This document shows positions 10,265-63,980 of a stretch of DNA of 64,000 nucleotides, in pieces. Position numbers and translations under genes: made by a program. Origin of the DNA: an uncultured Acidimicrobiia bacterium. Lineage in GTDB: Bacteria > Actinomycetota > Acidimicrobiia > Spongiisociales > ZC4RG35. The notes under the pieces were generated by a model. The model was given only the letters and a program-made list of their open reading frames with translations. It was not told where the DNA came from and did not search any database. The DNA lies in assembly GCA_963744905.1 (NCBI GenBank), contig CAVUUV010000004.1, forward strand, positions 102,360 to 166,359, given 5' to 3'. Every line of letters starts with the position of its first letter. Position 1 is the stretch's first letter.

Positions 10265-10293
10265 TCCCGGCGGAGGATTTGTAGGCTCCCGCT

Positions 10294-10752: not shown

Positions 10753-10822
10753 CCTCCACGACCTGAAGGATCTCGACCGTCCGGAGCACCTATTCGAGCT
10801 GACCCACCCCGATCTGCCGGTC

Positions 10823-38384: not shown

Positions 38385-38408
38385 CGTCTCTCTCCTAGGG
38401 CTCGCGTG

Positions 38409-40069: not shown

Positions 40070-40146
40070 CTGTCTCGCAAAAGAGGCTGCTCGCGACGAA
40101 TCGTATATGATGTAGGATCAGGCTGTCGAACGGACAGGAGTAGCTG

Positions 40147-41382: not shown

Positions 41383-41409
41383 AAACAGGCGTCTGAGGGA
41401 GCAGTATTC

Positions 41410-42648: not shown

Positions 42649-42658
42649 CGCCAGGGTC

Positions 42659-47498: not shown

Positions 47499-47522
47499 GT
47501 CCGCCAACCAAAGGAGACAGGC

Positions 47523-49756: not shown

Positions 49757-50755
49757 TCAATCCAGGCCGAACAGCCTCATGGCAGTCCCCCCCGAGATGG
49801 CGGCACGCTGGTTGGAGTCCAGGCCACCGGTCTCGGCCAGCAGGCCCACCGGGTCGGTCTCGCTCATATCGAAGGGGAAGTCCGTGCCGAGCATGACCCG
49901 TTCCGGCCCAACCACCTCGATCAGATGCCGGAGGTAAAGCGGCTGAAAGACCATCGTGTCGTAATAGAGCTGCTTCATGTAGTGACTGGGCGGGTGCTCG
50001 GGAATCCGTACCCGTGTCTCCGGTCTGACCTTCCACGTGTGATCGGCCCGGGAACAGTAGAAGGGGAGATAGCCGCCGCCGTGGAGCAGCAACAGCTTGA
50101 TCCCGGGATGGTCCTCGAACAGCCCACTGAAGATCATCCGGGTGGCGGCCACCATGGTCTCGAGGGGATTACCGATGCAGTTGACCAGGAAGTAGTCGGA
50201 GAGACGCTGCCCCTCCGGATAGCCGCTGGGGTGGAGGATGACCGGTACGCCCTTGGACGCCACGGCTGCCCAGAAGGGCCGGAACCGGGGCTCATCCAGG
50301 TTTCGCCCGTCGATCGTTCCCCCTATCTGGACTCCCTTGAAGCCCAACTCATCGACGGCCCGATCCATCTCGGCGATGGCCAGATCGATGTCCTGCAAGG
50401 GCAAGGTGGCCCCGATGGGGGCGAACCGATCCGGATGCTCGGCCGCCACCGTCGCCAGGTTGTCGTTCTGAATGCGGGCAGACTCGGCCGCGGCCGGACC
50501 CGGCGCCCAGTAGAAGTACTCCGATACGAAAGTGGCCAGACCTTGCAGTTCTATGCCCATCGCATCCATCAGCTCGAGCCGTGCCGACGGAACCGTCAGG
50601 GCGGCCTCGATGCTGGGAAACATCTCCTGGTTCTGTTCTCTGGAGGTCCGATTCATGAAGTAGTCGTAGGGCTCGAACTCAGGCCGCCGGTGTATCTCGA
50701 CCGGGGCCCTGGCGGAGGGAGTAGCGAGATGGCAATGGACGTCGATGGTCTTCAT
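49757..50755 (-). CDS. Amidohydrolase-2-family enzyme (ACMSD-type metal-dependent decarboxylase/hydratase-like)
   Basis: The N-terminal IDVHCHL motif, an internal …HPSGYP… and a …LLLHGGGY…GTDFPFD motif match PF04909 proteins. Confidence 0.8.
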   Translation of the reverse strand: MKTIDVHCHLATPSARAPVEIHRRPEFEPYDYFMNRTSREQNQEMFPSIEAALTVPSARLELMDAMGIELQGLATFVSEYFYWAPGPAAAESARIQNDNLATVAAEHPDRFAPIGATLPLQDIDLAIAEMDRAVDELGFKGVQIGGTIDGRNLDEPRFRPFWAAVASKGVPVILHPSGYPEGQRLSDYFLVNCIGNPLETMVAATRMIFSGLFEDHPGIKLLLLHGGGYLPFYCSRADHTWKVRPETRVRIPEHPPSHYMKQLYYDTMVFQPLYLRHLIEVVGPERVMLGTDFPFDMSETDPVGLLAETGGLDSNQRAAISGGTAMRLFGLD

Positions 50756-50796
50756 GGCTCCTGCCTGGGGGTCGGTGGCGGCACCATACCCTCACC

Positions 50797-51786
50797 GTGG
50801 AGCGGGAGACGCGCCACATGACCGGGTCGCTTCGGGATCTGATCTGGCGGTCTCAGGAGGGTGAGCGCCACGAGCGACGCCTCAACACGATCGTCGTGTA
50901 TCTGCTCCTGGCGACCGTGGTGGTGGTGCTGGGCTTGAACTGGCCGATCATGGCCACGGGCCTGAGATCCATCACTCCGGTGTGGATGGCGGTTTTCCGT
51001 GTCGCCGGCGCCGCGCTCGTCGTCACCACCATCACCGTCTCCACCGGTAGGTTTCACCTTCCGCCCCGACGTGACCTCCCGATCATCGTCTCACTGGGGA
51101 TCTTTCGTCTGGCGGCGGTCTTCCTCCTGGTCTTCACGGCCCTCAAGCTGGTGCCGGCGGGACGAGCATCGGTAGTCGTATGGACCACCTCACTGTGGAC
51201 GGTGCCCATCGCCGCCATCTTCCTGGGAGAGACGATGAACCGGCGCAGATGGATGGGGCTGGCAATTGGCATCACCGGCGTGGCGATTCTCTCACAGCCC
51301 TGGAGTCGGGATTGGACCGAGCCCGGCATCGCGTTGGGTCACGGGTTGCTGATTCTGGCCGCCATCACCAACGCCGCCACCTCGGTGCACATTCGCGCTC
51401 ACCGTTGGACCATCACTCCCCTGGAGGCCATCCCATGGCAACTGGCCGGGGCGGCCATCCCACTGGTCGTGCTCGGGCTGGTGATGGAAGGGCCGCCGGT
51501 CATCCACTGGACTGCCCAGCTGGCATGGATCGTCGCCTATCAGGGGATGCTCGCAACGGGAGTGGCGTTCTGGGCCCAGATAGTGATCCTGCGGAATCTC
51601 GCCGCCGTCTCCACCAACCTGACCCTGATGGCGGTCCCCGTGGTGGGCGTCATATCGTCGGCGGTGTTGTTGCAGGAGTCGATAACCGGCTCCCTGGCGA
51701 TGGGGATGGTCCTGGTCATCGTCGGCGTGAGCCTCAATCTCCTCTCCGATCAGGGACAGGGACGAGAACGGATCCCGGACGGGTAA
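50797..51786 (+). CDS. DMT-superfamily (EamA-like) transporter
   Basis: It has 10 TM helices and two EamA repeats. The true start may be the ATG at 50818. Confidence 0.7.
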   Translation: MERETRHMTGSLRDLIWRSQEGERHERRLNTIVVYLLLATVVVVLGLNWPIMATGLRSITPVWMAVFRVAGAALVVTTITVSTGRFHLPPRRDLPIIVSLGIFRLAAVFLLVFTALKLVPAGRASVVVWTTSLWTVPIAAIFLGETMNRRRWMGLAIGITGVAILSQPWSRDWTEPGIALGHGLLILAAITNAATSVHIRAHRWTITPLEAIPWQLAGAAIPLVVLGLVMEGPPVIHWTAQLAWIVAYQGMLATGVAFWAQIVILRNLAAVSTNLTLMAVPVVGVISSAVLLQESITGSLAMGMVLVIVGVSLNLLSDQGQGRERIPDG

Positions 51787-52479
51787 TCAGCTCCGCGCTC
51801 GCTCGGAGTCCTCGAAAGCGTGGATCGATGTGGCCAGGTGACGAGTCAATAGCTCGACCGCCGCCTCGGCATCCCGCTGCTCCAGAGCGTCGAGGATGTC
51901 GGCGTGATCTCGGTTGGCATCGTCTCGCAATGTCGAACTCTGCTTGAGAGAGGCCCCGATGTACATGAGTGAGGCATCCTGCAGGTTGCGGATTATCCCC
52001 ACCAGGCGGGGCGATGCGGCCGCTTCGTAGATGGCCATGTGGAAGGCGCGGTTCCGATCGACCCATTCGGCCGACTGCGGCTCTGCCAGCATCTTCTGGT
52101 GCAGCTCGCTGAGCCGGGCCAGGAGCTGGTCACTCACTTTGGGCACCGCCTGGCGGATCGCCAGCGGTTCCAGGACGCTCCGAATCTCATAGATCTCGTG
52201 AACGTCGTCGCTGCTCAGCTCCGCAACGACGGCACCGTGATGCGGATCGAACCTCACCAAACCCTCGGTGGCCAGGTCGCGGAGGGCTTCCCGCACCGGC
52301 GTGGTGCTCACATCGAGCATCGAGGCCAGCTCGGCCTGCACCAGCCGGCTCCCGCTGGCCAGCTCTCCGTTGAGTATGGCCCTACGCATGACCCCTCTGA
52401 CATACTCGTGGGCCGTCTGGCGGGTCGGTGCGAGTCCGTCGCCGAGGACGGAACTTCGGAAGTCGGAATCGCCTGTCAT
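51787..52479 (-). CDS. GntR-family transcriptional regulator (FadR/FCD subfamily)
   Basis: An N-terminal GntR wHTH (…LASGSRLVQAELASMLDVSTTPVREALRDLATEGLV…) is followed by an FCD helical domain. The start was chosen at MTGDSDF. Confidence 0.8.
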   Translation of the reverse strand: MTGDSDFRSSVLGDGLAPTRQTAHEYVRGVMRRAILNGELASGSRLVQAELASMLDVSTTPVREALRDLATEGLVRFDPHHGAVVAELSSDDVHEIYEIRSVLEPLAIRQAVPKVSDQLLARLSELHQKMLAEPQSAEWVDRNRAFHMAIYEAAASPRLVGIIRNLQDASLMYIGASLKQSSTLRDDANRDHADILDALEQRDAEAAVELLTRHLATSIHAFEDSERARS

Positions 52480-52596
52480 ATGGTTATCAATGCTAACTGT
52501 GGACCGGCTCCATCGTGTGGATGCTCGCCGCCCCGGGAAGCGATCGAGCCGGTGGGAGCGAGGCATCTACGATCTCGTCAACAACCCACAGGAGTC

Positions 52597-53598
52597 GTGT
52601 TGAAAGCAGTGCGTGTCGTTGAGCCCGGTGTGGTCACGGTGTCCGATGTACCCGAGCCACCGTCAGACCAGGTGATGGTCCGGGTCCACCAGGTAGGTAT
52701 CTGTGGAACCGACACCAAGATCTTTCTCGGCAAGATACCGGTGGACTATCCGCGGATCATGGGCCATGAGATGGTGGGTGAAGTCGCCTTCGCTCCCGAG
52801 GAGGCTCCCTACCAGGAGGGACAGCGAGTCCTGGTCGACCCGGGCGTCGCCTGCGGCTGGTGTCACCTCTGCCGAGCCGGGAGACCCAACCTCTGCATCA
52901 ACGGAGGTCTGCTGGGCCGCGATGTCGACGGCGTATTCGCCGACTACATAGCCGCACCCGTCGGTCGGCTCATACCCGTGCCGGAACACATCTCGGACAG
53001 AGCGGCCGGTCTGTTGCAGGTGCTTGGAACGTGCGTCCATGCCTGTAAGCAGGTCAACCCCGTTCCGGGTGGGGTGGCGGCGGTGATCGGCCTCGGGGTC
53101 TCCGGCCAGCTCATCGCCCAGTTGCTGACGATGAGGGGAATGCAGGTGGTGGGCATAACTCGATCCGAGTGGAAGCGACGCCTCGCCGTGGAAAGCGGAG
53201 TCGTCGCGGCGGTGGAACCGGCCCGGGCCGCCGCCGCGCTGGCCGACCTCACCTCGGGTCGTGGCCCCGAGATCGTTGTGGAGGCCGTCGGCACCGAGGC
53301 CACGTTGGCTGAGGCGATCTCACTGGCGGCCACAGGGGGAGAGGTGGTGGTGTTCGGGACGTTGACCGGTGGGAGCTCGGGACTCCCCTACTACGAGCTG
53401 TATCACAAGGAGCTGACGGTGCACAATCCTCGCGCTGCGATTCCGGCCGACTACGAGGATGGGGTTGCCCTGGCGGCAAGCGAGTCTCTGCGACTGGATG
53501 ACATCGTCACCCATGTGCTGACGCTGGACGACGCCCACCGCGCTTTCGAGCTGGTGCAGGATCCCGCCAGCCTGAAGGTACTGATGAAGCTCGGGTGA
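52597..53598 (+). CDS. Zn-dependent alcohol dehydrogenase (MDR family; threonine/sorbitol dehydrogenase-like)
   Basis: The structural zinc cysteines are in …GVACGWCHLCRAGRPNLC…. The Rossmann motif is VIGLGVSG. A GTG start at 52597 follows a CAGGAG RBS. Confidence 0.8.
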   Translation: MLKAVRVVEPGVVTVSDVPEPPSDQVMVRVHQVGICGTDTKIFLGKIPVDYPRIMGHEMVGEVAFAPEEAPYQEGQRVLVDPGVACGWCHLCRAGRPNLCINGGLLGRDVDGVFADYIAAPVGRLIPVPEHISDRAAGLLQVLGTCVHACKQVNPVPGGVAAVIGLGVSGQLIAQLLTMRGMQVVGITRSEWKRRLAVESGVVAAVEPARAAAALADLTSGRGPEIVVEAVGTEATLAEAISLAATGGEVVVFGTLTGGSSGLPYYELYHKELTVHNPRAAIPADYEDGVALAASESLRLDDIVTHVLTLDDAHRAFELVQDPASLKVLMKLG

Positions 53599-53604
53599 AC
53601 GGCC

Positions 53605-54796
53605 TCAGATTATGTCCCGCGCCGCCATGTCATCGATCTCCTCTGGTGGGAAGCCGAGCTCGACGAGGACCTCTTCTGTGTCGGCGCCCAGCATGGGAGG
53701 ATCTCTGCGAATCGATGCGGCCGTGTCCGAGAGTCGGATGGGAAGTCCCAGCATCTTGAAAGCCCCTACCAGGGGGACGTCTCTCTCGACCACCATCTCG
53801 CCGCGCCCTCGTCTGGTCGCTGCCCAAGGCCTCGGAGACCCGGTTGATCGGACCCGAGGGAATACCCAACTCGTCCATCACCCCGATCCACGACTGTCTG
53901 GTTCCGGTGGCGAGGACCTCCCCCACCAGCCGGTCCACCAACTGGCGGTTGCGAACCCGATCGGGGTTGGTCGCCATCCGCTCGTCTCGCGCCCACTCGG
54001 GATGACCCAGAGCCTCAGCCAGGAGACCGAATTGACGATCGTTGCCGACCGCCAGAGCCAGGTCTCCGTCAGCGGCCCGAAACGTCCTGTAGGGGACGAT
54101 GTTGGGGTGGCCGTTGCCATAGCGGGAGGGCTCGACACCGGAGGCGAGGTGGTTGGCTGCCACGTTCGCCAGCAGATGGAGGCCGGTGTCGTGGAGATTG
54201 ACTTCACATCGCTGGCCCGACCCGGTCGACCCCCGAGCCTGGAGAGCGGCGAGGATGGCGATGGTCGCCTGCATCCCGGTGCAGATGTCGACGATCGCCA
54301 CTCCCAGCTTCATCGGAGAGCCTTCCGGTTCGCCGGTGATCGCCATCAGCCCGGTCTCCGCCTGGAGAATGAAGTCGTATCCCGGCCGATCCGCTTTCGG
54401 GCCCGTGGATCCGTATCCGGTGATGGAGCACCGAACGACCCCGGCGGCGTTTTCCTCGAACCAGGCGTCGTCGAACCCCCAACGCTCCAGAGTCCCCCGC
54501 TTGAAGTTGTCCACCACCACATCCCCGGCACAGATCATCCGGCCCAGTACGGCCCGGCCCTCCGGCCGGGAGAGATCGAGGGTGATGCTGCGCTTGTTCC
54601 GATTCACCCCGACGAAATAGGCCGACAGCGGGCCGACATAGGGAGGTCCCCATTGCCGTGTGTCGTCACCCGTGCCCGGGCGCTCGACCTTGATCACCTC
54701 TGCTCCCAGGTCCCCCAGCGTCTGGGTGCATAAGGGTCCGGCCAGCACACGGGACAGGTCGATGACGCGCAGACCCGCCAGCGGACCATCGCTCAT
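53605..54796 (-). CDS. CaiB/BaiF-family (class III) CoA-transferase, apparent frameshift near 53815
   Basis: Full family conservation runs from MSDGPLAGLRVIDLSRVLAGP…. The C-terminal 60 aa (…GEMVVERDVPLVGAFKMLGLPIRLSDTAASIRRDPPMLGADTEEVLVELGF…) lie in the -1 frame (ORF 53605–53796). Confidence 0.75.
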
Positions 54797-55665
54797 TCTC
54801 GAGCTGCCCGCGAGGCGTCACTCTGATTGTGCCCCGAGTGAAAATCATCGGCGTAGGCGTCGAGGGCGACCTTGTTGCGCACCCGGAACTGGTGGAAATC
54901 GGCCGGTCGCTTCTCCAGGAAGGCGTTCATGCCCTCGAGAGACTCCTCGCTACCCCATATGTTGGCCAGCAACTCCATGCCATGCTGCCACGATGGATAG
55001 AGCTGGTCGCTGTCGAAGTTGAGCGAGACCTTGGTGGCCCGGAGAGTCTGAGAGGAGTAGCCCTTGATCTGGCTGACGATCTCCTCGACCCGCTGCCTGA
55101 GTTCTCCGGCCGGCACGGCCTCGTTGGCCAGGCCTATCTCCGCCGCCTCGGTCCCCGAATACCGACGACACAGGAAGATCATTTCCTTGGCACGCCGCTC
55201 GCCGATCAGTTTGGCGATGTACTGGGTGGCACCCACGGTCGGGCACGCACCCACTCTCGCCCCGGTCTGACCGAAGATCGCATCCTCGGCGGCGATGGCC
55301 AGGTCGCACCAGAGCATCAGCTCATGACCGCCCCCAACGCACGCCCCCTCCACCATGGCGATAACCGGGATGGGCAGGTTGCGACAGGTCATCGCCACCC
55401 GCAGCATCCGATCGTTCCACATGTACGAGTTGGCTTTGTTGAGCTTCATCATGGCGTGGAAGTCACCGCCGGCCGAGAAGTGACCCGCAACCCCGTAGAT
55501 GACGGCAGCCACGATGGTCGGATCGAGGCGGGTCGACTCGAGGGCGTGAGCGATCTCGTCGAGAGTCTGCTCCCGGAAGGCGTTTCGGACCTCGGGGCGA
55601 TTGATGCCGATCCAGGCAGCATCGTTACGCACTTCGTACACGATTTCGCGATATTCCATTGTCAT
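54793..55665 (-). CDS. Crotonase-fold enzyme, MenB/BadI-like (enoyl-CoA hydratase/isomerase family)
   Basis: …FSAGGDF… (oxyanion hole) … the C-terminal …FLEKRPADFHQFRVRN… resembles the DHNA-CoA synthase/2-ketocyclohexanecarboxyl-CoA hydrolase tail. Confidence 0.75.
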   Translation of the reverse strand: MTMEYREIVYEVRNDAAWIGINRPEVRNAFREQTLDEIAHALESTRLDPTIVAAVIYGVAGHFSAGGDFHAMMKLNKANSYMWNDRMLRVAMTCRNLPIPVIAMVEGACVGGGHELMLWCDLAIAAEDAIFGQTGARVGACPTVGATQYIAKLIGERRAKEMIFLCRRYSGTEAAEIGLANEAVPAGELRQRVEEIVSQIKGYSSQTLRATKVSLNFDSDQLYPSWQHGMELLANIWGSEESLEGMNAFLEKRPADFHQFRVRNKVALDAYADDFHSGHNQSDASRAARE

Positions 55666-56660
55666 CAGCCTTTCTCGCCAACTTCCACGGCCCGCCCCGT
55701 TGCGGCCGATTCCTGAGCGGCCTCGAGCACCGCTATCACGGCCAGGGCGGTTTCGCCGTCCACTTCGACCTCGGTCTCCCCCCTGACGGCGTGGGCGAAC
55801 TCGGTGAGCTCGTCCACCAACGGGTCGATCGGATCCAGCTCCACCTCATTGCGCTCGGAGCCGTCCCAGGCCTGCAGCTGCAGCCGGGCACCGGCGGCGA
55901 GGTTGTAGGCCGCCCCTTTGGTGGCAAACACCGAGATCTCATTGATGGTCGGGGTGAAGAACGAGGTGGTCAGGGTTCCCACCGCTCCGCTCTCGAACTC
56001 GACCGCCACCACCGTCGCCTCATCGATGGGATGGTCACGACCGGGCCGGGTGAAGGCGGAAACCCGGCGGATGGGACCCACCAGGTAGTGCATCGTGTCG
56101 ATCTTGTGAACCCCGAGCGAGGTCATCGAGCCCAGAGGGCTTTCCTCGGGGCTCCAGCGCCAGGCTCCGGCCGGCATACGAAAGCCGTTGGGAATCGACT
56201 GGTGGGCGACCACAGTCTCCACGTCGCCCAGATCCCCTGCCTCCAGCAGCGCCTTCAGACGGCGATTGGCCGCCGTCCTCCGCCGGAGGTGGCCTACCTG
56301 GAGAATGACCCCGGCCCGCCTGGCGGCGTCGATGCAGGCCACACCGTCGGCCACCGTGGTAGTGAGGGGCTTCTCCAGGAATACGTGCTTGCCTGCCGAC
56401 GCCGCCTGCTCGGTCAGTGGACGGTGGCTCTTGTGAGAGGTGGCGATCAAGACCCCTTCGATCTCCGGATCTGTGAGGAACTCGTCCAGAGAACCGGCCG
56501 CCCGGCACCCGAATCGCTCGGCGAATCTGTTCCGCCCCTCGGCGCCACGGGCGAAGCAACTTACGATCTCGGCCTGCCCGCTTCGTTGCACGGCCTGGGC
56601 CATTTCCGCTCCCCACCATCCCAGCCCGAGGCTTCCGAGACGTACCCTGTCCGTACTCAT
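55665..56660 (-). CDS. Gfo/Idh/MocA-family NAD(P)-dependent oxidoreductase
   Basis: An N-terminal Rossmann motif (LGSLGLGWWG) and an …EKP… motif are present. The length is 331 aa. Confidence 0.8.
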   Translation of the reverse strand: MSTDRVRLGSLGLGWWGAEMAQAVQRSGQAEIVSCFARGAEGRNRFAERFGCRAAGSLDEFLTDPEIEGVLIATSHKSHRPLTEQAASAGKHVFLEKPLTTTVADGVACIDAARRAGVILQVGHLRRRTAANRRLKALLEAGDLGDVETVVAHQSIPNGFRMPAGAWRWSPEESPLGSMTSLGVHKIDTMHYLVGPIRRVSAFTRPGRDHPIDEATVVAVEFESGAVGTLTTSFFTPTINEISVFATKGAAYNLAAGARLQLQAWDGSERNEVELDPIDPLVDELTEFAHAVRGETEVEVDGETALAVIAVLEAAQESAATGRAVEVGEKG

Positions 56661-56729
56661 TGCTCTCCTTCCGCTCGATCGATCCTATATGTTATGTGAT
56701 ATTGCCCCACGCGACGAGAAAGGCCTCGT

Positions 56730-58052
56730 ATGACCATCACCGTCAAGGGAGGAACGGTGGTTTCGGCCACCGCTCTCGGCCGGGCAGATCTGCGGATAGA
56801 GGGCGAGACAATCGCCGAGATCGGAGACCTGGAGCCGGATGGCGAGGTGGTGGATGCGACCGGCCTGTTGGTTCTTCCGGGGATGGTCGATACCCACGTT
56901 CACCTCATGGATCCTGGCCCCACCGACCGGGAGGACTTCCCCACCGGGACGTCGGCCGCCGCCGCCCGGGGGGTGACCACGGTCGTCGAGCACACCCACG
57001 CTCATCCGATTCGCTCCGTCTCCGAGTTCGACGACAAACGCCACTATCTGCAGGGACGGTCCAATGTCGACTATGGGCTCGCCGCCCATGTGTGGCCGGA
57101 TCACATAGGCGACATCACCGAACTGGCGGCGGCGGGGATCAGCTTCTTCAAGATCTTCACCTGCACCACCCATGGAGTGCCCGGTCTCGATCCGTTCCAG
57201 TTGCGGGAGGCTCTGATCGCCATAGCCGGGGCCGGGATTGGCTGCCTGATCCACAACGAAGACGAGAGCCTGACTACTTCGACCGAAAGGCGGCTGAGAG
57301 AGGAGGGGAGGTCCGATCCGGGGCTGCTGTCGGAATGGCGCAGCCGCGAAGCAGAGATGGTGGCGGTGGCGTCGAGCGCCGCCCTGGTGTTGAGCACGGG
57401 AGCGGCAGCCACCTTCGCCCATGTCTCCTCTCCGCCGGTCCTGGATGTCATCGACGCCTTTCGCAACCTGGGCGCCGATATCGTCGCCGAGGCCTGTCCC
57501 CAGTACTTCACCATGGAGGAGGCCGAGGTCGAGTCCTTCGGTGCCTTGCGCAAGTTCACCCCGCCGGCCCGGATTCGCCGGGCCGAGGACCGGGTCGCCA
57601 TGTGGGAGGCGGTGCGAACGGGCCGGTTCCATCACTTCTCCACCGATCACGCACCCTCGACCGTCGCCCAGAAGACCGGGACGGGATTCTGGGATGCCCC
57701 ATTCGGGCTTCCCGGGCTCGACACCACCTTGCCCTTCCTCCTGGATGCTGCCCTGGAGGGTGAGATTGCCCTGACCGACCTGGTGCGCCTCTACTCCACC
57801 GCCCCCGCCGACCGCTACCGGCTCCCCAAGGGCCGATTGGCCCCGGGGAGCGACGCCGATCTGGTCCTGGTCGATCCTGAGGCGAACTGGCAGGTCGAGG
57901 ACGGAGACATCATCTCCAAAGCCGGGTGGACACCCCTGGCCGGGCGCAGTTTCCGGGGTGGCGTAGTCTCCACCTACCTGCGTGGCCGGGAAATCGCCCG
58001 GGATGGTCGCTGCCACCACAGTTTGAGCGGCAACTTCGTCCGACCCCGATAG
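56730..58052 (+). CDS. Cyclic amidohydrolase (dihydroorotase/allantoinase/dihydropyrimidinase-like)
   Basis: …GMVDTHVHL… (HxH) and the overall 440 aa layout match D-hydantoinase/allantoinase-type enzymes. Confidence 0.8.
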   Translation: MTITVKGGTVVSATALGRADLRIEGETIAEIGDLEPDGEVVDATGLLVLPGMVDTHVHLMDPGPTDREDFPTGTSAAAARGVTTVVEHTHAHPIRSVSEFDDKRHYLQGRSNVDYGLAAHVWPDHIGDITELAAAGISFFKIFTCTTHGVPGLDPFQLREALIAIAGAGIGCLIHNEDESLTTSTERRLREEGRSDPGLLSEWRSREAEMVAVASSAALVLSTGAAATFAHVSSPPVLDVIDAFRNLGADIVAEACPQYFTMEEAEVESFGALRKFTPPARIRRAEDRVAMWEAVRTGRFHHFSTDHAPSTVAQKTGTGFWDAPFGLPGLDTTLPFLLDAALEGEIALTDLVRLYSTAPADRYRLPKGRLAPGSDADLVLVDPEANWQVEDGDIISKAGWTPLAGRSFRGGVVSTYLRGREIARDGRCHHSLSGNFVRPR

Positions 58053-58103
58053 CGGGACCAGGCTACGGCACCGCGACGGGTCGGCCCGAGGGGTGAGGGA
58101 GAC

Positions 58104-58616
58104 TCAGCAGACGGCGCAGGCGCTCATGAACACCGCCAGCATCGTGTAATAACCCACCATGGCCGCCAGTTCAACGATGCCTTCTTCGCCCAGATCGGAC
58201 CTCGCCGCCTCGAAGACGGCGTCGGACACGGTCCCCGTCCGACACAGCTCCTGGACGAAGGTCACCAGAGTCGCCGCCGAGGGATCGTCCACCATCTTGC
58301 CGGCCTGGATCGATTCCAGTACCGCGTCCGACACCCCGGCCGACCTGGCCAGAGGCGAGTGCGATTCCCACTCGAAGGGGCAACGACGCTCGATGGCGGT
58401 GGTACAGATCACCAGCTCGCGATCGTGGTCCGACAGCATCCCCCGATAGCGGATCACGGCCCCGAGGTCGGCCGCCGCCCGGGCTATCTCCGGACGGTGG
58501 AGCATGGCGGCGAAGGGACGGATCATCTTGCCCCGACTGGCCGCGATGTGATCGAACACCTCCAGCTGGGAAGGAGCGGCCTGGTCTCGCTCTTCGATCA
58601 TCTCGACACGTGGCAT
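58104..58616 (-). CDS. Carboxymuconolactone-decarboxylase (CMD/AhpD-like) family protein
   Basis: 170 aa. …ELVICTTAIERRCPFEWESH… is the typical CMD core. Confidence 0.75.
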   Translation of the reverse strand: MPRVEMIEERDQAAPSQLEVFDHIAASRGKMIRPFAAMLHRPEIARAAADLGAVIRYRGMLSDHDRELVICTTAIERRCPFEWESHSPLARSAGVSDAVLESIQAGKMVDDPSAATLVTFVQELCRTGTVSDAVFEAARSDLGEEGIVELAAMVGYYTMLAVFMSACAVC

Positions 58617-58657
58617 CGTCCCTCCTGGCCAGAAGACATTTCTAGGCTGTATCTTGC

Positions 58658-59467
58658 ATGATATATGATCTGGCGGTGACGGAATCCGCAGACAGAATCG
58701 TCGACACCGCCCGGGGGACGATCTCCTACGGTGACTACGGGAGGGGGCCTGCCCGGGTGGTGCTGCATTCCCTGCTCACGGACCGGCGGGCCTTCGACCA
58801 CCTCCGGGCCGACATGGGTGGCAGGATCATCACCGTCGACCTGGCGGGTTTTGGCTCCACGGCGCCGGCTCCCCCCACCATCGACGCCTATGCCGACCAG
58901 GTGGCCGCTCTCATGGAGGCCCTCGACCTGGAGCCCACCACCACCTTCCTGATGGGAAATGGCCTGGGGGCGTTCGTAGCCCTGGGCCTCGCCATCCACC
59001 ATGGAGACGCCTTCGGGCGGCTGTTGCTGATCGGGTGTGGGACCGGGTTCTCTGCCTCCGCCAGGGGCAGTTTCCTCGCCATGGCTTCGGCGGCGGAGGC
59101 AGGGGGCATGGACGCCGTCGTTCCCACCGCGCTCCGGCGCATATTCACCGAGGAGTACCTGGACGCCAACCCGAGTGTGGCCGAGGAGCGGGCGATGGTG
59201 CTGAAGCGTACCGACCCGGCCGCCTTCGCCTCGGCCTGCCATGCCCTGTACGGCCTCGACTATGCCGAAGAGGTCAGCGGAGTGCACAACCCCACCATGA
59301 TCGTGGTGGGCGAGGACGACCGGGCCACACCACCGGAGATGGCCGAGCGTCTCCACGCGTTGCTCCCCGACTCCACCCTGGTGCGTCTTTCGGGTGTGGC
59401 CCACGCCCCTCATCTGCAGGATCCGGCCGGGTTCATGAGAACGATCAAACGATTCCTGGAGGAATGA
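58658..59467 (+). CDS. Alpha/beta-hydrolase-fold protein (3-oxoadipate enol-lactonase-like) lacking the nucleophilic serine
   Basis: The fold motifs are present (…VVLHSLLTDRRAF…, and a C-terminal …GEDDRATP…GVAHAPHLQDP). The nucleophile elbow reads LMGNGLGAF instead of G-x-S-x-G. Confidence 0.7.
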   Translation: MIYDLAVTESADRIVDTARGTISYGDYGRGPARVVLHSLLTDRRAFDHLRADMGGRIITVDLAGFGSTAPAPPTIDAYADQVAALMEALDLEPTTTFLMGNGLGAFVALGLAIHHGDAFGRLLLIGCGTGFSASARGSFLAMASAAEAGGMDAVVPTALRRIFTEEYLDANPSVAEERAMVLKRTDPAAFASACHALYGLDYAEEVSGVHNPTMIVVGEDDRATPPEMAERLHALLPDSTLVRLSGVAHAPHLQDPAGFMRTIKRFLEE

Positions 59468-60408
59468 TGACGAGGTACAAAGTGGTGGTCAGCGATCAGG
59501 TGTTTCCCTCGGTGGAGATCGAACGCGCCATGCTGGCTGAGATCGACGCCGGGTTGGACGTCGCCACCGGCAACATCGACGACGTGCTGGCCGTGGCCGC
59601 AGATGCCGACGCCATCCTCAACACCTATCTCCCCTGGACCGCCGAGGCCATCGCAGGACTGGAGAGGTGCCAGATCATCGCCCGCTACGGTATCGGGGTC
59701 GACAACGTCGATCTCGATGCGGCCGCCCGCGCCGGCATCGTCGTCACCAACGTCCCCGACTACTCGGTGGAGGAAGTGGCCACCCATGCCCTGGCCCTGA
59801 TTCTGGCCTCTCTGCGGAAGGTGGTACCGGCAGACGACCTGGTTCGGTCCGGCGGGTGGAGCGTGGACAACTTCCGTCCCATACACCGTCTCTCCACCAT
59901 GACGGTGGGCCTGGTGGGCTACGGACGCATCGCCCGGCGTATCGCCGCTCCCCTGGAGGCCCTGGGGGCGCGGCTCGTGGCACACGACCCCTACCTTGAG
60001 CCTGGCCCCGACCTCCCACCGCTGCTGGAGCTCGATGATCTCCTCTCCGAAGCAGACGTGGTCTCGCTCCACCTTCCCCTCACCGACGAGACCCGGGGCC
60101 TGATCGACGCTGACCGGATCGAGATCATGAAGCCGGGCGCGATCCTGGTCAACACCTCCCGCGGCCCGCTGGTGGATCTCGACGCCGTCACCGCCGCCCT
60201 CGAGGAGCACCGGCTCGGTGCCGCCGGTCTGGACGTGTTCGACGTCGAACCGGTCGACCCCGAACGCCTCGAGGGGGTATCGAATCTGATCGCAACTCCC
60301 CACATGGCCTACTACTCGGAGGAAGCGCTGCAGGAATCCCAACGCAAGGCCACCACACAGGTGATCAAAGTCCTCACCGGCCAAGAACCGGATTACCGGG
60401 TCAACTGA
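59467..60408 (+). CDS. D-isomer-specific 2-hydroxyacid dehydrogenase (PGDH/CtBP-like)
   Basis: GLVGYGRIARRIA is an NAD-binding motif. …SLHLPLTDETRGLI… and the catalytic …TPHMAYYSEE… are present. The start overlaps the upstream stop in a TGATG arrangement. Confidence 0.8.
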   Translation: MTRYKVVVSDQVFPSVEIERAMLAEIDAGLDVATGNIDDVLAVAADADAILNTYLPWTAEAIAGLERCQIIARYGIGVDNVDLDAAARAGIVVTNVPDYSVEEVATHALALILASLRKVVPADDLVRSGGWSVDNFRPIHRLSTMTVGLVGYGRIARRIAAPLEALGARLVAHDPYLEPGPDLPPLLELDDLLSEADVVSLHLPLTDETRGLIDADRIEIMKPGAILVNTSRGPLVDLDAVTAALEEHRLGAAGLDVFDVEPVDPERLEGVSNLIATPHMAYYSEEALQESQRKATTQVIKVLTGQEPDYRVN

Positions 60409-60409
60409 G

Positions 60410-60787
60410 ATGGAGGCGAGCCCCGAAATCGTCGAGCGAGGCGTCTTCGAGCCCGAACAGTTCTCCCGGGAGCTGGACCAGGCTCCAGACAATCACGACC
60501 TGGGCACCACGCTCTGGTTCGAGAACGAACGCATCCGGGTGTGGGAGGTTCTGCTCCAGCCGGGAGAGAGAGGTCCCTTTCACAGCCACACCACCAACTA
60601 CTTCTGGACCGTCGTCGAGGGCAGCCGCGGCCTGCAGCGCTTCGCCGACGGGACCTATGTGATTCGCGATTACGAGGTCGGAGAGACCAAATTCCTCGAG
60701 CACACCGTGGATCAGCCCCTGATTCACGACCTCGAGAATGTCGGCGGTGGCGTCCTGCGATTCGTGACTGTGGAACTCCTCGGCTGA
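60410..60787 (+). CDS. Cupin-domain protein
   Basis: 125 aa with the cupin motif …FHSHTTNYFWTVVEG…. Confidence 0.65.
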   Translation: MEASPEIVERGVFEPEQFSRELDQAPDNHDLGTTLWFENERIRVWEVLLQPGERGPFHSHTTNYFWTVVEGSRGLQRFADGTYVIRDYEVGETKFLEHTVDQPLIHDLENVGGGVLRFVTVELLG

Positions 60788-60794
60788 GCAACCG

Positions 60795-61976
60795 ATGGGG
60801 TGGCCACGAGTTGTCATAGCTGGAGGCTCGATCGGGGGCCTCACCACCGCCGCCCTCCTGCGCGACCTGGGATGCCGGGTCGACGTCTACGAGCGCTCGC
60901 CCTCCCCCCTCGAGGACCGGGGGGCCGGAATAGTCGTCCTGCCGATCACCGAGCGCTACTTCCGGGAACGAGCCGAGGAGGATGAGAGGGTCAGCCTGGA
61001 GCTCACCTACTGGACCTACGTCGACCGGGAGGGGAGGATCCTGAGTGCCGACCCCGATCATTACCGGTTCAGCGGCTGGAACACCATCTACCGCGCCCTG
61101 CTCGACGCCTTCGGGACCGAGCACTACCACCTCGGCCGGGAGGTGGTCGGGTTCGAAGAGGACCAGGACGGGGTCACCGCGGTGCTGGCTGACGGCGAAC
61201 GGGTTGGGGGCGACCTGCTGGTCTTCGCTGATGGATTTGGCTCCACCGGCCGCTCCATACTCATGCCGGAGGTGGTTCCCGAGTACGCCGGTTATGTTGC
61301 GTGGCGCGGGACCACCCCCGAGAACTCCCTCAGCCCGGCCACCCGTCGGCAGTTGGCCGACGCCATGGTTTACCAGGTCCTCGACGCCGGACACATCCTG
61401 GTCTACGCCATCCCCGACCATTTCGGACGCACCTCCCCCGGCCACCGGGTGATCAACTCCGTCTGGTATCGCAACTATCCGACGGGAGGCCCCTTCGAGG
61501 ATCTGATGGTCGACCGTGACGGCCGGCGCCGGGCCGCCACCGTTCCCCCGGGAGGAATCCGTCCCGAGCCCATGAGAGAGATGCAGACCACCGCCCGGCG
61601 AGTGCTCGCTCCCATCCTTCTGGAAGTGGTGATGGGGTGTGACCAGCCCCTGATTCAGGCCATCTTCGACCTGGCGAGCCCCCGGATGGCATTCGGCCGT
61701 ATTTGCCTCATCGGAGACGCCGCAGCCACCATCCGTCCCCACCTGGCGGCCGGCCAGGCCAAGGCCTGTGCCGACGCCTGGGCCCTGCGCGACGCACTCC
61801 GGTCGTCGGGCGGCGAGGTGAGGTCTGCCCTGGCGAAGTGGGAGCCCCAACAGCTGGCCCTGGCTCACGATGCCCGGAATCGCTCGCGTGCCATGGGGAC
61901 TGCCAGCCAGTTCGACGGGACGATGATCCCCGGCGACCCCGCCTGGAAATTCGGTTTGTGGGAGCCGGGCAATTGA
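60795..61976 (+). CDS. FAD-dependent aromatic-ring monooxygenase (2,6-dihydroxypyridine-3-hydroxylase/salicylate-hydroxylase-like)
   Basis: The GxGxxG motif is VIAGGSIGGLTTA, and the DG motif is DLLVFADGFGS. …GDAAATIRPHLAAGQ… is also present. The length is about 393 aa. Confidence 0.8.
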   Translation: MGWPRVVIAGGSIGGLTTAALLRDLGCRVDVYERSPSPLEDRGAGIVVLPITERYFRERAEEDERVSLELTYWTYVDREGRILSADPDHYRFSGWNTIYRALLDAFGTEHYHLGREVVGFEEDQDGVTAVLADGERVGGDLLVFADGFGSTGRSILMPEVVPEYAGYVAWRGTTPENSLSPATRRQLADAMVYQVLDAGHILVYAIPDHFGRTSPGHRVINSVWYRNYPTGGPFEDLMVDRDGRRRAATVPPGGIRPEPMREMQTTARRVLAPILLEVVMGCDQPLIQAIFDLASPRMAFGRICLIGDAAATIRPHLAAGQAKACADAWALRDALRSSGGEVRSALAKWEPQQLALAHDARNRSRAMGTASQFDGTMIPGDPAWKFGLWEPGN

Positions 61977-63112
61977 TCGTCGAGGTAGTGGCGGTCGGCA
62001 CCGAGCTCCTCATCGGCCAGATCATCAACTCCAACGCCGCCGCCATCGGCCGCCGGCTGGCCGAGGAAGGCTTCGACGCCCACTTCCAGGTGACGGTAGG
62101 CGACAACCTCTCCCGATTGTCTTTCACTCTCAGGCAGGCCCACCAACGGGCGGATGCGGTCGTCATCACCGGGGGCATCGGCCCCACCCAGGACGACCTC
62201 ACCCGCCAGGCGCTGTGTAACCTCGCCGACCGTCCGATGATCCGGGACCGCGAGCACGCCGCCTGGATCGAGGACCGAATCCGCTCCTCCCGGGGGACGG
62301 TGTCGGAGAACGTGCTGCGCATGGCCGACCTCCCCGAGGGTGCGGAGGGTCTGGTCAACGCCAACGGGGTGGCACTCGGGGTGGCGCTGGAGCATCAGGG
62401 AAAGTGGCTCTTCGCCATGCCCGGTGTTCCAGCCGAGATGATGATGATGTTCGACCAGGAGGTACTCCCCCGGCTCCGCCGACTTTCGGGCTCTCCCGCC
62501 GTCCTCCTCAGCCGGGTGCTGAGAACCTGGGGCCTGGGCGAATCTCAGGTGGCCGAGCGCCTCGACGACCTCTTCACGGCCACCAACCCGTCAGTGGCCT
62601 TCCTCATCAGTGATATGGAGGTCCAGGTCCGGATCAGCGCCAAGGCGCCGGACAGGGAGACGGCAAGAGACCTGATAGAGCCGGTGGAGCGGCAGGTGCG
62701 GGAGAGGCTTGGTGGGGCGGTGTTCGGCAGTGATTCCGATCGCGTCGAGGACCTGATCCTGGGCGGGCTCTCCGCCCAGGCCTGGACGGTGGCCACGGTC
62801 GAGCACGCCACCCTGGGTCAGGTGGGAGCTCGTCTCGCCACAACACTCGGCGAGGCCTTTAGGGGTTCGATCATCCCTCCGTCCGGTGAGGCCGAACCAT
62901 CACCGCCCCCGGCCGACGTGATCCTCCACGTCGGTGAGATCGGGACGGATCCGGCCGAGCGCCGCACGACCCGGGCGGTCGACATGGACGTCCGCACACC
63001 GGTCAGATCCATCGAGCGTACTTTCAGGTTCGGAGGCGACGACGAGCGCCTACGCTCTTTCGCGGTCATCGCCGGACTGCACATGATCCGTCAGGCCATC
63101 GAGCCCTCATGA
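61973..63112 (+). CDS. cinA: CinA-family competence/damage-inducible protein (MoCF-binding domain + CinA C-terminal domain)
   Basis: A probable TTG start at 61973 overlaps the upstream stop. IVEVVAVGTELLIGQIINSN… is the classical CinA N-terminus. Confidence 0.75.
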   Translation: MIVEVVAVGTELLIGQIINSNAAAIGRRLAEEGFDAHFQVTVGDNLSRLSFTLRQAHQRADAVVITGGIGPTQDDLTRQALCNLADRPMIRDREHAAWIEDRIRSSRGTVSENVLRMADLPEGAEGLVNANGVALGVALEHQGKWLFAMPGVPAEMMMMFDQEVLPRLRRLSGSPAVLLSRVLRTWGLGESQVAERLDDLFTATNPSVAFLISDMEVQVRISAKAPDRETARDLIEPVERQVRERLGGAVFGSDSDRVEDLILGGLSAQAWTVATVEHATLGQVGARLATTLGEAFRGSIIPPSGEAEPSPPPADVILHVGEIGTDPAERRTTRAVDMDVRTPVRSIERTFRFGGDDERLRSFAVIAGLHMIRQAIEPS

Positions 63113-63980
63113 TCGCCGGCAGCCGGCTGCGTGACCATCTCGCTCGCCGGCCACTGCTCACTGCGGTCGTATATACGGGGGTTGGGGTTCTGCCCATGTT
63201 CCTGGTCAGCGCCCAGATCCTCCAGTTGGGGCGGGAGATCGACTTCGGCGTTGCCCGGCTCGGTTTGGCCACCGCATTCTTCTTCGGAATGGCCGCCTTG
63301 GCCGCCAACCCGGCCGGTCAGGTGGTGGCGCGCCTCGGCCCTCGCCAGGGTTTGCGCATCGGCAGCTCTCTCACCGTGGTTGCCTGCATCCTGGCCGCCT
63401 CCGCTTCGGCCTGGTGGGTGATACCCGTGGCCACCGCCCTGGGTGGAATCGGCAATGGGACGATCCAGGTAGCGGCCAACGTGGCCATCTTCGACGGCGT
63501 CACCCGGCGAAGGCAGGGATTGGCCTTCGGGAGCAAACAGGCCTCCGTCCCCTTGGCCAGCATGCTGGCCGGACTCTCACTGCCGGTGATCGGACTCGTG
63601 TTCGGGTGGCGCTGGGTCTTCATCGGCGCCGCCTTGCTGGCCCTGATGCTGGCCGCTTCTGCCCCCGCTCCTGCCAACAGGAGAAAAGAGATCGAGGCAC
63701 GAGGGACCCATGGGCCGCCCGCCACCATCTCTGATACTCCTGGGGCTGGCCGGGATCAGTGGGGCCATGGCCGGCAACGGTGTCTCTCTGTTCGTCGTCC
63801 CCTCGGCCGTGGCGGTTGGCATCAGCGAGGCGGCGGCCGGGGCCGTCCTGGCGGTCTGCTCGTTCCTGGCGATGGCCGTGCGCATGGCGGCGGGCTGGAC
63901 CGTGGATAGGCGGGGATCCAGCGGTCACACCGAGATGGCCTGGCTGGTGGGGGCCGGCGCGGTGGGGGCTCTGGTACTGA
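63109..63980 (+). CDS. MFS transporter (runs off the window end; possible frameshift near 63718)
   Basis: Six TM helices and then the central loop are read in the frame of the start codon. The second half (…PPPSLILLGLAGISGAMAGNGVSLFVVP…) is readable in the -1 frame and continues to the end of the window. Confidence 0.65.

Follow-up and report, generated by a model that had tools for sequence, protein, structure and literature searches.

In the hxn pathway of Aspergillus nidulans, 2,3,6-trihydroxypyridine is saturated, an imidase opens 3-hydroxypiperidine-2,6-dione, and alpha-hydroxyglutarate is the end product (PMC9304392). The bacterial 2-hydroxypyridine and nicotine routes, which pass through 2,3,6-trihydroxypyridine, also end in a C-N opening to a glutaramate-type product. 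In addition, the hydrolysis of glutarimides by hydantoinase-type enzymes has been described (PMC13098106). Here we analyze a gene cluster of an uncultured Acidimicrobiia bacterium in which a cyclic amidohydrolase might take such a ring-opening role. The stretch of DNA examined (assembly GCA_963744905.1, contig CAVUUV010000004.1, 102,360-166,359, forward strand) is 64,000 nt long and is hereafter called the window; the interval flagged in it spans window positions 49757-61976. Soils, sediments, and sea water are rich in Acidimicrobiia, a class with almost no cultured members and very few pathways assigned by experiment. The cluster is a regulator-controlled catabolic gene set built from known superfamilies, and we tentatively connect it with the breakdown of an N-heterocycle.

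The G+C content of the window is ~65%, and overlapping open reading frames (ORFs) are abundant on both strands. Genes were called from codon-position GC, a GC3 of 0.75-0.83 selecting one ORF per position; families were assigned with Pfam and NCBIfam, and the nearest solved relatives were taken from a comparison with PDB. Scores given as x/y bits are the NCBIfam score and the curated cut-off, respectively. In the order in which they lie, the 13 genes of the flagged interval encode an ACMSD-like Amidohydro_2 protein (Amido2), an EamA/DMT transporter, a GntR regulator with an FCD domain, a Zn-dependent medium-chain dehydrogenase (Zn-ADH), a class III CoA-transferase, a crotonase, a Gfo/Idh/MocA oxidoreductase (GFO), the cyclic amidohydrolase, a carboxymuconolactone-decarboxylase family protein (CMD), a serine-less alpha/beta-fold protein (hydrolase), a D-isomer-specific 2-hydroxyacid dehydrogenase (2HDH), a small cupin, and a class A FAD monooxygenase (table 1). 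These are the 13 families, in the order, that an initial annotation had read from the letters of the stretch, and the Pfam and NCBIfam comparisons bear them out.

Conservation of the Gene Neighborhood

The amidohydrolase served as the anchor for sampling related loci. When one genome per GTDB species was scanned by alignment, 300 relatives were returned, and the best 80 of these were taken with 10-kb flanks; they are the 80 loci to which the counts below refer. Nearly all derive from Acidimicrobiia-type metagenome-assembled genomes (MAGs), with anchor identities of 55-72%, and the named amidohydrolase homologues are almost all from Acidimicrobiia MAGs. When gene presence was scored by tblastn of the window proteins (at least 45% identity), 53 of the 80 loci had at least two of the 13 genes, 43 at least three, 23 at least five, and 12 at least eight; a single locus (L022) has all 13. 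The initial annotation was to be refuted if, among other things, the neighborhood proved not to be conserved in other genomes; with 43 of 80 loci sharing three genes or more, this refutation fails. Loci with at least five genes display 19 different gene orders, and the arrangements encountered include Amido2-GntR-ZnADH-amidohydrolase-2HDH, ZnADH-2HDH-cupin-amidohydrolase-GFO on one strand, and crotonase-GntR-amidohydrolase. The 19 arrangements imply that gene order has not been passively inherited, and the grouping of the genes is not due to chance.

The commonest partner of the amidohydrolase is GFO (32/80 loci). Cupin, Zn-ADH, GntR, Amido2, monooxygenase, hydrolase, and 2HDH occur at intermediate frequency (15-23/80 loci, with Amido2 orthologues in 18 and Zn-ADH in 21), and CMD, crotonase, and CoA-transferase in 9-11/80; the EamA/DMT gene is found in 12/80, always beside Amido2 or GntR. 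Genes absent from the window also recur beside the amidohydrolase in related loci (e.g., L025 6037-6441, L044, L065, and L005 12607-16205). These include RidA/L-PSP (19 loci) and, in 12 loci, a NitT/TauT-like ABC transporter of three to four genes with a binding protein that matches no Pfam family.

A Shared Operator and Its Candidate Regulator

In 18 loci the intergenic regions between GFO and the amidohydrolase contain a strongly conserved element, and those between CMD and the hydrolase contain its reverse complement. The consensus is a 19-bp palindrome, ATCSTRYAT-S-ATRYASGAT. The window has exactly three such operators (at 56682, 58651, and 40100) against 0.15-0.23 expected by chance, and the 80 loci have 49 (with up to two mismatches) against 0.4 in shuffled sequences. 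All 49 are in promoter positions, the majority 20-80 nt upstream of gene starts, and the genes behind them are GFO, the amidohydrolase, CMD, the hydrolase or 2HDH, an Amidohydro_2 paralogue, and HIBADH plus Mo-hydroxylase. CMD is the gene that most regularly adjoins the operator, and the crotonase-CoA-transferase pair follows one in three independent arrangements (L032, L051, L075). The operator at 56682 has a counterpart at the same position in at least 15 orthologous intergenic regions. Orthologous sites of the operator at 58651 are present in L001, L004, L007, L010, L012, and L022 and in 19 metagenome contigs; that of the operator at 40100, found in L005, precedes DctP-SDR-cupin-Ldh_2-amidohydrolase. 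Because the pattern was partly derived from the 80 loci, a metagenome collection was scanned independently with the exact pattern. Of 33 matches on high-G+C contigs, 19 had clear orthologues of cluster genes directly at the motif, and the gene orders were once more new. The half-sites contain outward-facing TANNNT hexamers, so that the operator overlaps both -10 boxes of the divergent promoters (GFO-amidohydrolase and CMD-hydrolase), as a repressor site would. Neither the window nor four related loci gave a riboswitch in a search with Rfam.

The GntR/FCD protein is the likely binder of this operator, as judged from gene and motif distribution. Orthologues of the GntR gene and the motif co-occur (16/18 vs 19/62 loci; odds ratio 18, p=1.7e-5), and in five other contigs (L095, L113, L162, L167, L097) a perfect palindrome stands 0-60 nt upstream of a GntR+FCD gene. 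The operator type may therefore be common to a wider group of GntR/FCD regulators. These five contigs carry none of the enzyme genes of the cluster, and in one the palindrome is divergent from an Fe-ADH gene. Within the called ORF, Met30 at 52479 is the likelier start, orthologues being 226-240 aa long, so that the protein would occupy 51787-52479. The earlier placement of the locus under a GntR (FCD) regulator thus agrees both with the co-occurrence and with the palindromes that precede other GntR/FCD genes, but sits less well with the regulator's own promoter: in the window, the GntR-Zn-ADH and Amido2-EamA intergenic regions have no full operator, only -10-like half-sites. The Amido2-EamA region (50756-50796) contains a separate conserved element, G(C/G)ACCATAAC in seven loci and GGCACCATACC in the window, which differs from the 19-bp palindrome. 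Further GntR/FCD paralogues recur near the amidohydrolase in related loci.

The interval had been described as one contiguous locus, the second of two. It resolves instead into at least seven transcription units on alternating strands. GFO is the first gene of an operon with crotonase and CoA-transferase, with overlaps of 1 and 4 nt, the latter between the crotonase stop and the CoA-transferase start. The right-hand operon (hydrolase-2HDH-cupin-monooxygenase-CinA-MFS; junctions ATGA, 1-nt gap, 7-nt gap, TTGA, and ATGA) runs on past the monooxygenase into the CinA-like and MFS genes. Nor is this region separate from the supposed first locus: since an operator lies at 40100 and the upstream genes accompany the amidohydrolase in other genomes, the two are one regulon. 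Homologues of these upstream genes (35.5-49.7 kb) are found within 10 kb of the amidohydrolase elsewhere, M24b in 17 loci (identity up to 91%), HIBADH in 24, and the Mo subunit (MoCoL) in 14, often with an operator in front. In L005 the genes for the TRAP solute-binding protein (TRAP-SBP, DctP), SDR, cupin, Ldh_2, and amidohydrolase are consecutive on one strand behind an operator, and the MFS_3 transporter travels with the Amido2-EamA-GntR block, at the same position in L006, L022, L069, L070, L072, and L077. The continuation downstream, past 64 kb, was read from the collinear loci L010 and L022; there MFS is followed by two more GFO-type genes, one or two Amidohydro_2 paralogues, and then another operator. 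The functional unit is therefore one regulon of ~28 kb or more (~35.5 kb to beyond 64 kb), which exceeds the flagged interval.

The Cyclic Amidohydrolase and Its Counterparts outside Acidimicrobiia

The amidohydrolase appears roughly equidistant from allantoinase, DHOase, and hydantoinase, with NCBIfam scores of 279.7/357.85, 260.2/452, and 238.6/393.25 bits, respectively (ErtD 224.7/600), and PDB matches of ~1e-50 to all three alike. Residues H56, H58, K141, H175, H231, and D306 are invariant in 26 sequences and correspond to H59, H61, Kcx146, H186, H242, and D315 of Escherichia coli allantoinase, so that the full binuclear metal centre is kept. In the loop after HxH, HVHLMDPG, there is no Arg at the position of the carboxylate-binding residue of DHOases. 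The protein forms a subfamily of its own, marked by the motifs HVHLMDPG and FTC[TDS]THGVP, to which ~300 proteins of GTDB species representatives belong.

The best plasmid-borne matches to the amidohydrolase come from haloarchaea, whose megaplasmids have a partial version of the cluster. Plasmid CP050017 of Haloarcula sp. JP-L23 (L081) has homologues of the amidohydrolase (43%), 2HDH (44%), and monooxygenase (37%) together, an asparaginase gene divergent from the amidohydrolase, and as neighbors a Mo-hydroxylase with a 2Fe-2S subunit, SDRs, MFS, DMT, and a CoA-acylating semialdehyde dehydrogenase. In a plasmid of Haladaptatus halobius (L082), an asparaginase is again adjacent to an amidohydrolase-Amidohydro_2-SDR series, and an ABC transporter, M24, a cysteine hydrolase, a cytosine-type (NCS1) permease, GFO, and an LLM monooxygenase are nearby. 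The pairing of amidohydrolase and asparaginase is found in an Actinomycetota locus (L074) as well. An amidase beside a ring-opening amidohydrolase fits the sequence cyclic imide, half-amide, acid, and fits a ureide route less well. Likewise, no carbamoylase-type family turned up among the cluster genes scanned in the window, which also fits an imide route better than a ureide route.

The CoA Module and the Remaining Enzymes

The initial annotation had taken the crotonase for a BadI-like ring hydrolase. MenB and BadI are indeed the top models (MenB PRK07396 195.8/380, TIGR01929 184.7/342.7, BadI TIGR03210 176.4/467.6 bits), and the protein has the ECH_1 fold with its oxyanion-hole segments, sharing with MenB 2IEX (1e-50) the scaffold and the GQTG..VG segment. 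However, alignment to E. coli MenB 4ELS reveals three altered motifs, GSFD to GACP, LFY to NIW (Tyr258 to Trp), and GGGHV to GGGHE, and the altered residues are identical in 12/12 orthologues. We take Ser161/Asp163 and Tyr258 (E. coli MenB numbering) to be catalytic, as in the MenB literature, and the Glu gained in GGGHE to be the equivalent of enoyl-CoA-hydratase Glu144 (rat numbering). With the MenB catalytic Ser/Asp and Tyr replaced, the crotonase is not of the MenB/BadI type and a different reaction is to be expected. Ring hydrolysis of the BadI type was rejected on this ground, and an alicyclic acid, one of the two substrate options first offered, becomes unlikely for the same reason. The CoA-transferase appears, from its closest relatives, to be of the dicarboxylate (SUGCT, glutarate, oxalate) type, with 355/750 bits to SucGlutTfsCaiB and 3e-83 to SUGCT in PDB.

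The FAD monooxygenase exceeds the cut-off of PRK07236 (434 vs 333 bits) and matches 2,6-dihydroxypyridine hydroxylase 2VOU over residues 5-388 (9e-72; next best match 2e-17), in agreement with the type first assigned to it. The alpha/beta protein, at 128/256 bits to PcaD TIGR02427, has GNGLG where PcaD 2XUA has GLSMG. It does lack the serine, as had been noted; the Gly is invariant in 17 orthologues (40-59% identical), and the His is kept. Its gene is probably leaderless, starting from GTG 58676. For Amido2, the closest solved structure is ACMSD (1e-50, 176 bits), as anticipated, followed by gamma-resorcylate decarboxylase (1.6e-31, 113 bits); H7xH9 and HGGG are present in the sequence, and no NCBIfam model matches at E<=1e-5. 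Zn-ADH, in which the catalytic and structural Zn Cys motifs are visible, has PRK10083 as best NCBIfam model (158/376 bits), 2HDH scores 228/454 bits to PGDH and 190/455 to glyoxylate reductase, and the nearest PDB entry of GFO is an uncharacterised protein, 3DB2 (1.6e-46). The cupin remains under the gathering score of its Pfam family (Cupin_2 21.9 vs 27.2 bits) but matches a PDB cupin (9u8n, 5.9e-10), and its HxH...Hx3N motif, of the three-His type and without the usual Glu ligand, is invariant in 18 orthologues. No NCBIfam model matched the cupins.

A Proposed Pathway and Its Alternatives

We tentatively favor, as a possibility somewhat short of an even chance, that the regulon serves the catabolism of a small N-heterocycle, a pyridone or cyclic imide by type, that bears hydroxyl and carboxyl groups; of the two substrate classes first suggested, the N-heterocycle stays the best guess and the alicyclic acid falls away. 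A repressor, most probably the GntR/FCD protein, would sit on the 19-bp palindrome over the -10 boxes until released by a carboxylate inducer, and uptake would proceed via the MFS, TRAP, and DMT transporters. Hydroxylation of the ring would be optional and could be carried out by the Mo-hydroxylase and the 2,6-dihydroxypyridine-hydroxylase-like flavoenzyme in those versions of the cluster that have them. The ACMSD-like and CMD proteins may remove a carboxyl group or shift a tautomer, and GFO and Zn-ADH may bring the ring to the oxidation level of an imide or lactam. The DHOase-type amidohydrolase, and not the crotonase, would then open the ring by C-N hydrolysis. For the steps that follow we infer that 2HDH would convert the resulting 2-hydroxy or 2-oxo dicarboxylate, and that in a side branch the SUGCT-like CoA-transferase and the re-tooled crotonase could bring a C4-C5 dicarboxylate as CoA ester into central metabolism. 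A search of the literature on isonicotinate and citrazinate catabolism, on trihydroxypyridine with amidohydrolase, and on PDB 9U8N found nothing usable.

As first remarked, no textbook pathway matches, the NCBIfam equivalog scores being all below cut-off. Several observations weigh against assigning the regulon to an N-heterocycle. No protein of the cluster reaches an equivalog cut-off, save for two subfamily-level models, and homology therefore assigns no substrate. Several versions of the cluster that are complete in other respects (such as L011, L077, L126, and L196) are without the monooxygenase and the serine-less hydrolase, so that the main pyridine clue is accessory; both proteins were correctly typed at the outset, but neither is a constant part of the locus. 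An amidase is not apparent in the Acidimicrobiia cluster itself, the window ORFs that were scanned include neither an Fe-S nor a FAD subunit to go with the large subunit of the Mo-hydroxylase, and the promoter of the GntR gene itself is without a full operator. Furthermore, about one third of the amidohydrolase homologues are in housekeeping surroundings without operator. In L023, L026-L029, L031, L034, and L036, homologues 57-60% identical and with the same motifs adjoin a NUDIX gene inside a block that, on reading the sequences, looks like der, ispH, cmk, aroA, rluB, and scpAB, and these loci have no cluster gene and no operator. The amidohydrolase is thus not exclusive to the regulon. Finally, the dehydrogenases, the Amidohydro_2 paralogues, TRAP, and the GntR/FCD regulator would suit sugar-acid metabolism too.

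This last point leads to a substrate free of nitrogen, such as a sugar acid, a polyol, or a hydroxylated aromatic acid, in whose breakdown the Amidohydro_2 proteins might serve as lactonases or decarboxylases, the amidohydrolase having been recruited for a side reaction. At least five NAD(P) dehydrogenases (GFO in two to three copies, Zn-ADH, SDRs, HIBADH with 179 bits to L-threonate dehydrogenase, and Ldh_2), a TRAP solute-binding protein, a GntR/FCD regulator of a kind that often controls sugar-acid operons, and a PcaC/PcaD-like pair recalling the beta-ketoadipate route are all compatible with it. However, no dehydratase, kinase, or KDPG-type aldolase family was seen among the genes scanned, Amido2 is nearest to decarboxylases and has no lactonase match in PDB, and the PcaD-like protein is without a nucleophile. 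Since, moreover, the amidohydrolase is the hub of the conserved neighborhood and stands directly on an operator, and since the associations with Mo-hydroxylase, flavin hydroxylase, and asparaginase point to C-N chemistry, we regard a nitrogen-free substrate as quite unlikely. Catabolism of a ureide, hydantoin, or pyrimidine would retain the amidohydrolase at the center, as an analogue of allantoinase or dihydropyrimidinase, with the cupins in place of ureidoglycine aminohydrolase or ureidoglycolate lyase. The part of ureidoglycolate dehydrogenase would fall to Ldh_2 or 2HDH, that of tartronate-semialdehyde reductase to HIBADH, that of xanthine or uracil dehydrogenase to the Mo enzyme, and that of an HpxO-like hydroxylase to the flavoenzyme. 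Allantoinase is the best NCBIfam model for the amidohydrolase (280 bits), Ldh_2 has 199 bits to ureidoglycolate dehydrogenase, and HpxO is the second-best named model for the monooxygenase (106 bits), but these scores are all below the curated cut-offs, and in PDB the monooxygenase is far closer to 2,6-dihydroxypyridine hydroxylase than to HpxO (245 vs 66 bits). The succession of cupin, Ldh_2, and amidohydrolase on one strand in L005 follows an allD/allE/allB logic, RidA, NitT/TauT-type ABC transporters, and HIBADH occur in related loci, and Haladaptatus has its cytosine (NCS1) permease, cysteine hydrolase, and LLM monooxygenase nearby. Nevertheless, no N-carbamoyl amidohydrolase, allantoate amidohydrolase, allantoicase, HIU hydrolase, or OHCU decarboxylase family was found among the genes scanned, the CoA module and at least three extra dehydrogenases would be left without a role, and in three lineages the partner of the amidohydrolase is an asparaginase instead of a carbamoylase. 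A ureide-type route is, in our view, unlikely.

Two further scenarios concern the CoA module and the unity of the regulon. The top-ranking MenB and BadI models, the translational coupling of crotonase and CoA-transferase to the GFO gene, and the recurrence of the pair by an operator in L032, L051, and L075 would agree with a route in which an alicyclic or heterocyclic acid is activated with CoA and the crotonase then cleaves a C-C bond of the ring hydrolytically, in the manner of BadI. Yet the crotonase reaches only about half of the equivalog cut-offs (196/380, 176/468), MenB Ser161/Asp163 and Tyr258 are Ala/Pro and Trp, with a Glu gained, in 12/12 orthologues, the presence of the module in 9-11/80 loci marks it as a peripheral branch, and a dicarboxylate-type CoA-transferase suggests open-chain substrates; C-C ring cleavage is accordingly very improbable. 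It is also conceivable that there is no common pathway, unrelated small operons being mere neighbors and the palindrome a promoter element typical of the lineage. The seven transcription units on alternating strands, the -10 hexamer TANNNT in the half-site, the half-site-like -10 boxes at the Zn-ADH promoter, and a module composition that differs between genomes could be read in this way. In contrast, at anchor identities of 55-72% the same genes recur with one another in 19 orders, unidirectional contexts also retain the full palindrome, just three operators occur in 64 kb, all within this region, a metagenome-wide motif search returns this cluster, and a partial version of it is found in Halobacteria. 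We therefore consider a fortuitous patchwork extremely improbable.

If N-heterocycle catabolism is indeed the function and the substrate is a common one (nicotinate-type, pyridone, or cyclic imide), the cluster would add a bacterial and archaeal route. To our knowledge, several classical N-heterocycle pathways are still without genes. If the substrate proves ordinary, the main value would be a better annotation of a recurrent MAG gene set. In either case the cluster, present in dozens of species-level genomes, offers a handle, as its operator is defined and the ligand of the candidate GntR sensor would disclose the substrate, and it contains three enzyme variants with a chemistry that homology leaves unreadable, namely the new cyclic-amidohydrolase subfamily, the MenB-like crotonase, and the serine-less alpha/beta protein. 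The Haloarcula and Haladaptatus carriers are cultured and could serve as experimental proxies.

Gene Inventory and Neighboring Features

Table 1. Features of the window, with positions, strand, and the matches on which the assignments rest.
Feature	Position	Strand	Evidence or context
Amidohydro_2, ACMSD-like (probable non-oxidative decarboxylase or hydratase)	49757..50755	-	PF04909 141 bits
EamA/DMT transporter, divergent from Amidohydro_2 gene	50797..51786	+	PF00892, two matched stretches
GntR regulator with FCD	51787..52566	-	PF00392 52 bits + PF07729 97 bits
Zn-dependent medium-chain dehydrogenase (Zn-ADH), divergent from GntR	~52597..53598	+	ADH_N + ADH_zinc_N
Class III CoA-transferase, succinate:glutarate/SUGCT type	53630..54796	-	PF02515 379 bits
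Crotonase, MenB-like scaffold	54793..55665	-	ECH_1 PF00378 192 bits, profile positions 6-250 of 251
Gfo/Idh/MocA oxidoreductase (GFO)	55665..56660	-	three GFO Pfam domains
19-bp palindromic operator ATCCTATATGTTATGTGAT	56682..56700	.	GFO-amidohydrolase intergenic
Cyclic amidohydrolase, DHOase/allantoinase/hydantoinase superfamily	56730..58052	+	NCBIfam, PDB
Carboxymuconolactone-decarboxylase (CMD/AhpD-like) family protein	58104..58616	-	PF02627 33.6 bits
Second operator copy ATCTTGCATGATATATGAT	58651..58669	.	between CMD and hydrolase operon
Serine-less alpha/beta-fold protein, PcaD-like	58658..59467	+	Abhydrolase Pfam matches
D-isomer-specific 2-hydroxyacid dehydrogenase (2HDH)	59464..60408	+	2-Hacid_dh_C 175 bits
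Small single-domain cupin, 125 aa	60410..60787	+	Cupin_2 21.9 bits, PDB 9u8n
Class A FAD monooxygenase, 2,6-dihydroxypyridine 3-hydroxylase type	60795..61976	+	PRK07236, 2VOU
CinA-like protein, MoCF_biosynth + KH domain, degenerate C-terminus	61973..63112	+	Pfam; TIGR00200 243.8/243.15 bits
MFS transporter, last operon gene visible in window	63109..63909	+	MFS_1 62.5 bits
Third operator copy ATCGTATATGATGTAGGAT, perfect match	40100..40118	.	between DctP operon and HMGL-like operon
Upstream operon: TRAP solute-binding protein, SDR, cupin, Ldh_2 dehydrogenase, perhaps M24 protein	35495..40069	-	Pfam, NCBIfam
Upstream operon: IPMS/homocitrate-synthase-like, DddP-like M24, PPDK_N/PEP-utilizer, HIBADH, orphan Mo-hydroxylase large subunit, SDR	40147..48302	+	
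MFS_3 (EntS-like) transporter	48433..49704	+	Pfam, NCBIfam

The CinA-like gene is translationally coupled on both sides, to the monooxygenase and to MFS, and has the same position in six to seven genome loci and five metagenome contigs. PRK00549 covers its product only at profile positions 4-295 of 414, and the NMN-deamidase part thus seems degenerate. The MoCF_biosynth domain of this protein could relate to pyridine nucleotides or to Mo-cofactor handling. MFS orthologues at the same position are 61-76% identical and ~390 aa long, the ORF in the window having 266 aa; this short ORF near the window end may reflect a frameshift, a truncation, or an assembly error.

In the upstream part, the gene for the DddP-like M24 protein (115 bits to DMSP lyase DddP vs a cut-off of 600; PDB 4S00 2e-27) is followed by one for a PPDK_N plus PEP-utilizer protein without a match to the PEP-binding C-terminal domain (41410-44341, + strand). 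The two are adjacent in at least eight other loci, and the conservation of M24b is unusually high for a protein without an assigned function. At 45213-47498 (+) lies the Mo-binding large subunit of the xanthine-dehydrogenase family with a HIBADH-type dehydrogenase gene in front, a pair that stands behind an operator in L025, L032, L039, and L041. Farther away, the stretches 1229-2800 (+) and 9044-13177 encode an HpaB-type two-component flavin hydroxylase and another Amidohydro_1 protein, and also a protein with an adenylate/guanylate-cyclase domain followed by a 784-aa AAA-domain protein.

Comparison with Described Systems

Membership in several described systems was considered and rejected. 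For the nic genes of Pseudomonas putida, the relation to NicC is distant (64 bits), the Mo large subunit is an orphan, and no isochorismatase, Asp/Glu-racemase, or NicX-type family was found among the genes scanned. In the case of the enterobacterial all/hpx regulon, AllB and AllD score 280/358 and 184/496 bits and no M20 or allantoicase family was found; for the allantoin/purine, reductive pyrimidine, and Rut pathways, cut-offs are not reached and obligatory partner enzymes are absent. Metabolism of dimethylsulfoniopropionate (DMSP) or acrylate, suggested by the DddP-like M24 protein, CoA-transferase, crotonase, and cupins, was set aside, since the similarities are weak (115/600 bits to DddP) and the amidohydrolase hub would be left unexplained.

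Single components do resemble characterized proteins. The regulator has the domain architecture of the FadR subfamily of GntR/FCD regulators and a similar layout, with a palindromic operator over the -10 boxes of divergent catabolic promoters, although ATCSTRYAT-S-ATRYASGAT does not fit the t.GT-N-AC.a core that we take to be usual in that subfamily. The CMD and PcaD-like proteins recall PcaC and PcaD of the beta-ketoadipate pathway and are encoded side by side, divergently, from one operator; here, however, Gly replaces the nucleophilic Ser, and no other pca genes are present. As regards the crotonase, MenB and BadI are its best-scoring relatives and share its scaffold, but it has other residues in place of the catalytic Ser/Asp and Tyr, and an additional Glu. 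With AllB, DHOase, D-hydantoinase, dihydropyrimidinase, and imidase, the amidohydrolase has in common the fold and the binuclear centre including the carboxylated Lys, yet its scores reach none of the equivalog cut-offs. The monooxygenase belongs to the same PRK07236 subfamily as 2VOU, encoded by pAO1 of Paenarthrobacter nicotinovorans, and no other nicotine/hpo families are found here. Unlike in pAO1-type routes, several versions of the present cluster can do without the monooxygenase, and whereas the ring opener of the bacterial 2-hydroxypyridine and nicotine routes is a polyketide-cyclase-like protein, here it would be the DHOase-type amidohydrolase.

The logic of the proposed pathway is most like that of fungal hxn, in which a Mo-hydroxylase and FAD monooxygenases lead to trihydroxypyridine, then, by reductase and dehydrogenase steps, to a cyclic imide, and, by hydrolytic C-N opening, to an alpha-hydroxy C5 dicarboxylate, after which 2HDH would be the natural next enzyme. 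The enzymes, however, are not homologous. Fungal HxnM is a PuuE/polysaccharide-deacetylase-type imidase, against a DHOase-type candidate here; HxnT is an OYE and HxnW an SDR, the candidates here being Zn-ADH and GFO; and no HxnN-type amidase is seen in this cluster. The hxn product is the (S)-isomer, whereas the dehydrogenase here is in a D-specific family, and hxn has no CoA module and no ACMSD-like, CMD, cupin, or serine-less hydrolase component. In its most far-reaching form, which we regard as unlikely, our reading would imply that Acidimicrobiia and, in part, Halobacteria have a prokaryotic route not yet described, for a compound of the pyridinediol, nicotinate, or glutarimide type. The ring would be hydroxylated, part-saturated, and opened by new DHOase-type imidases, a CoA branch would employ a crotonase re-invented on the MenB scaffold, and the nucleophile-less alpha/beta protein and the three-His mini-cupin would carry out new, non-hydrolytic chemistry. 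If true, this route would be an enzymatically non-homologous counterpart of fungal hxn.

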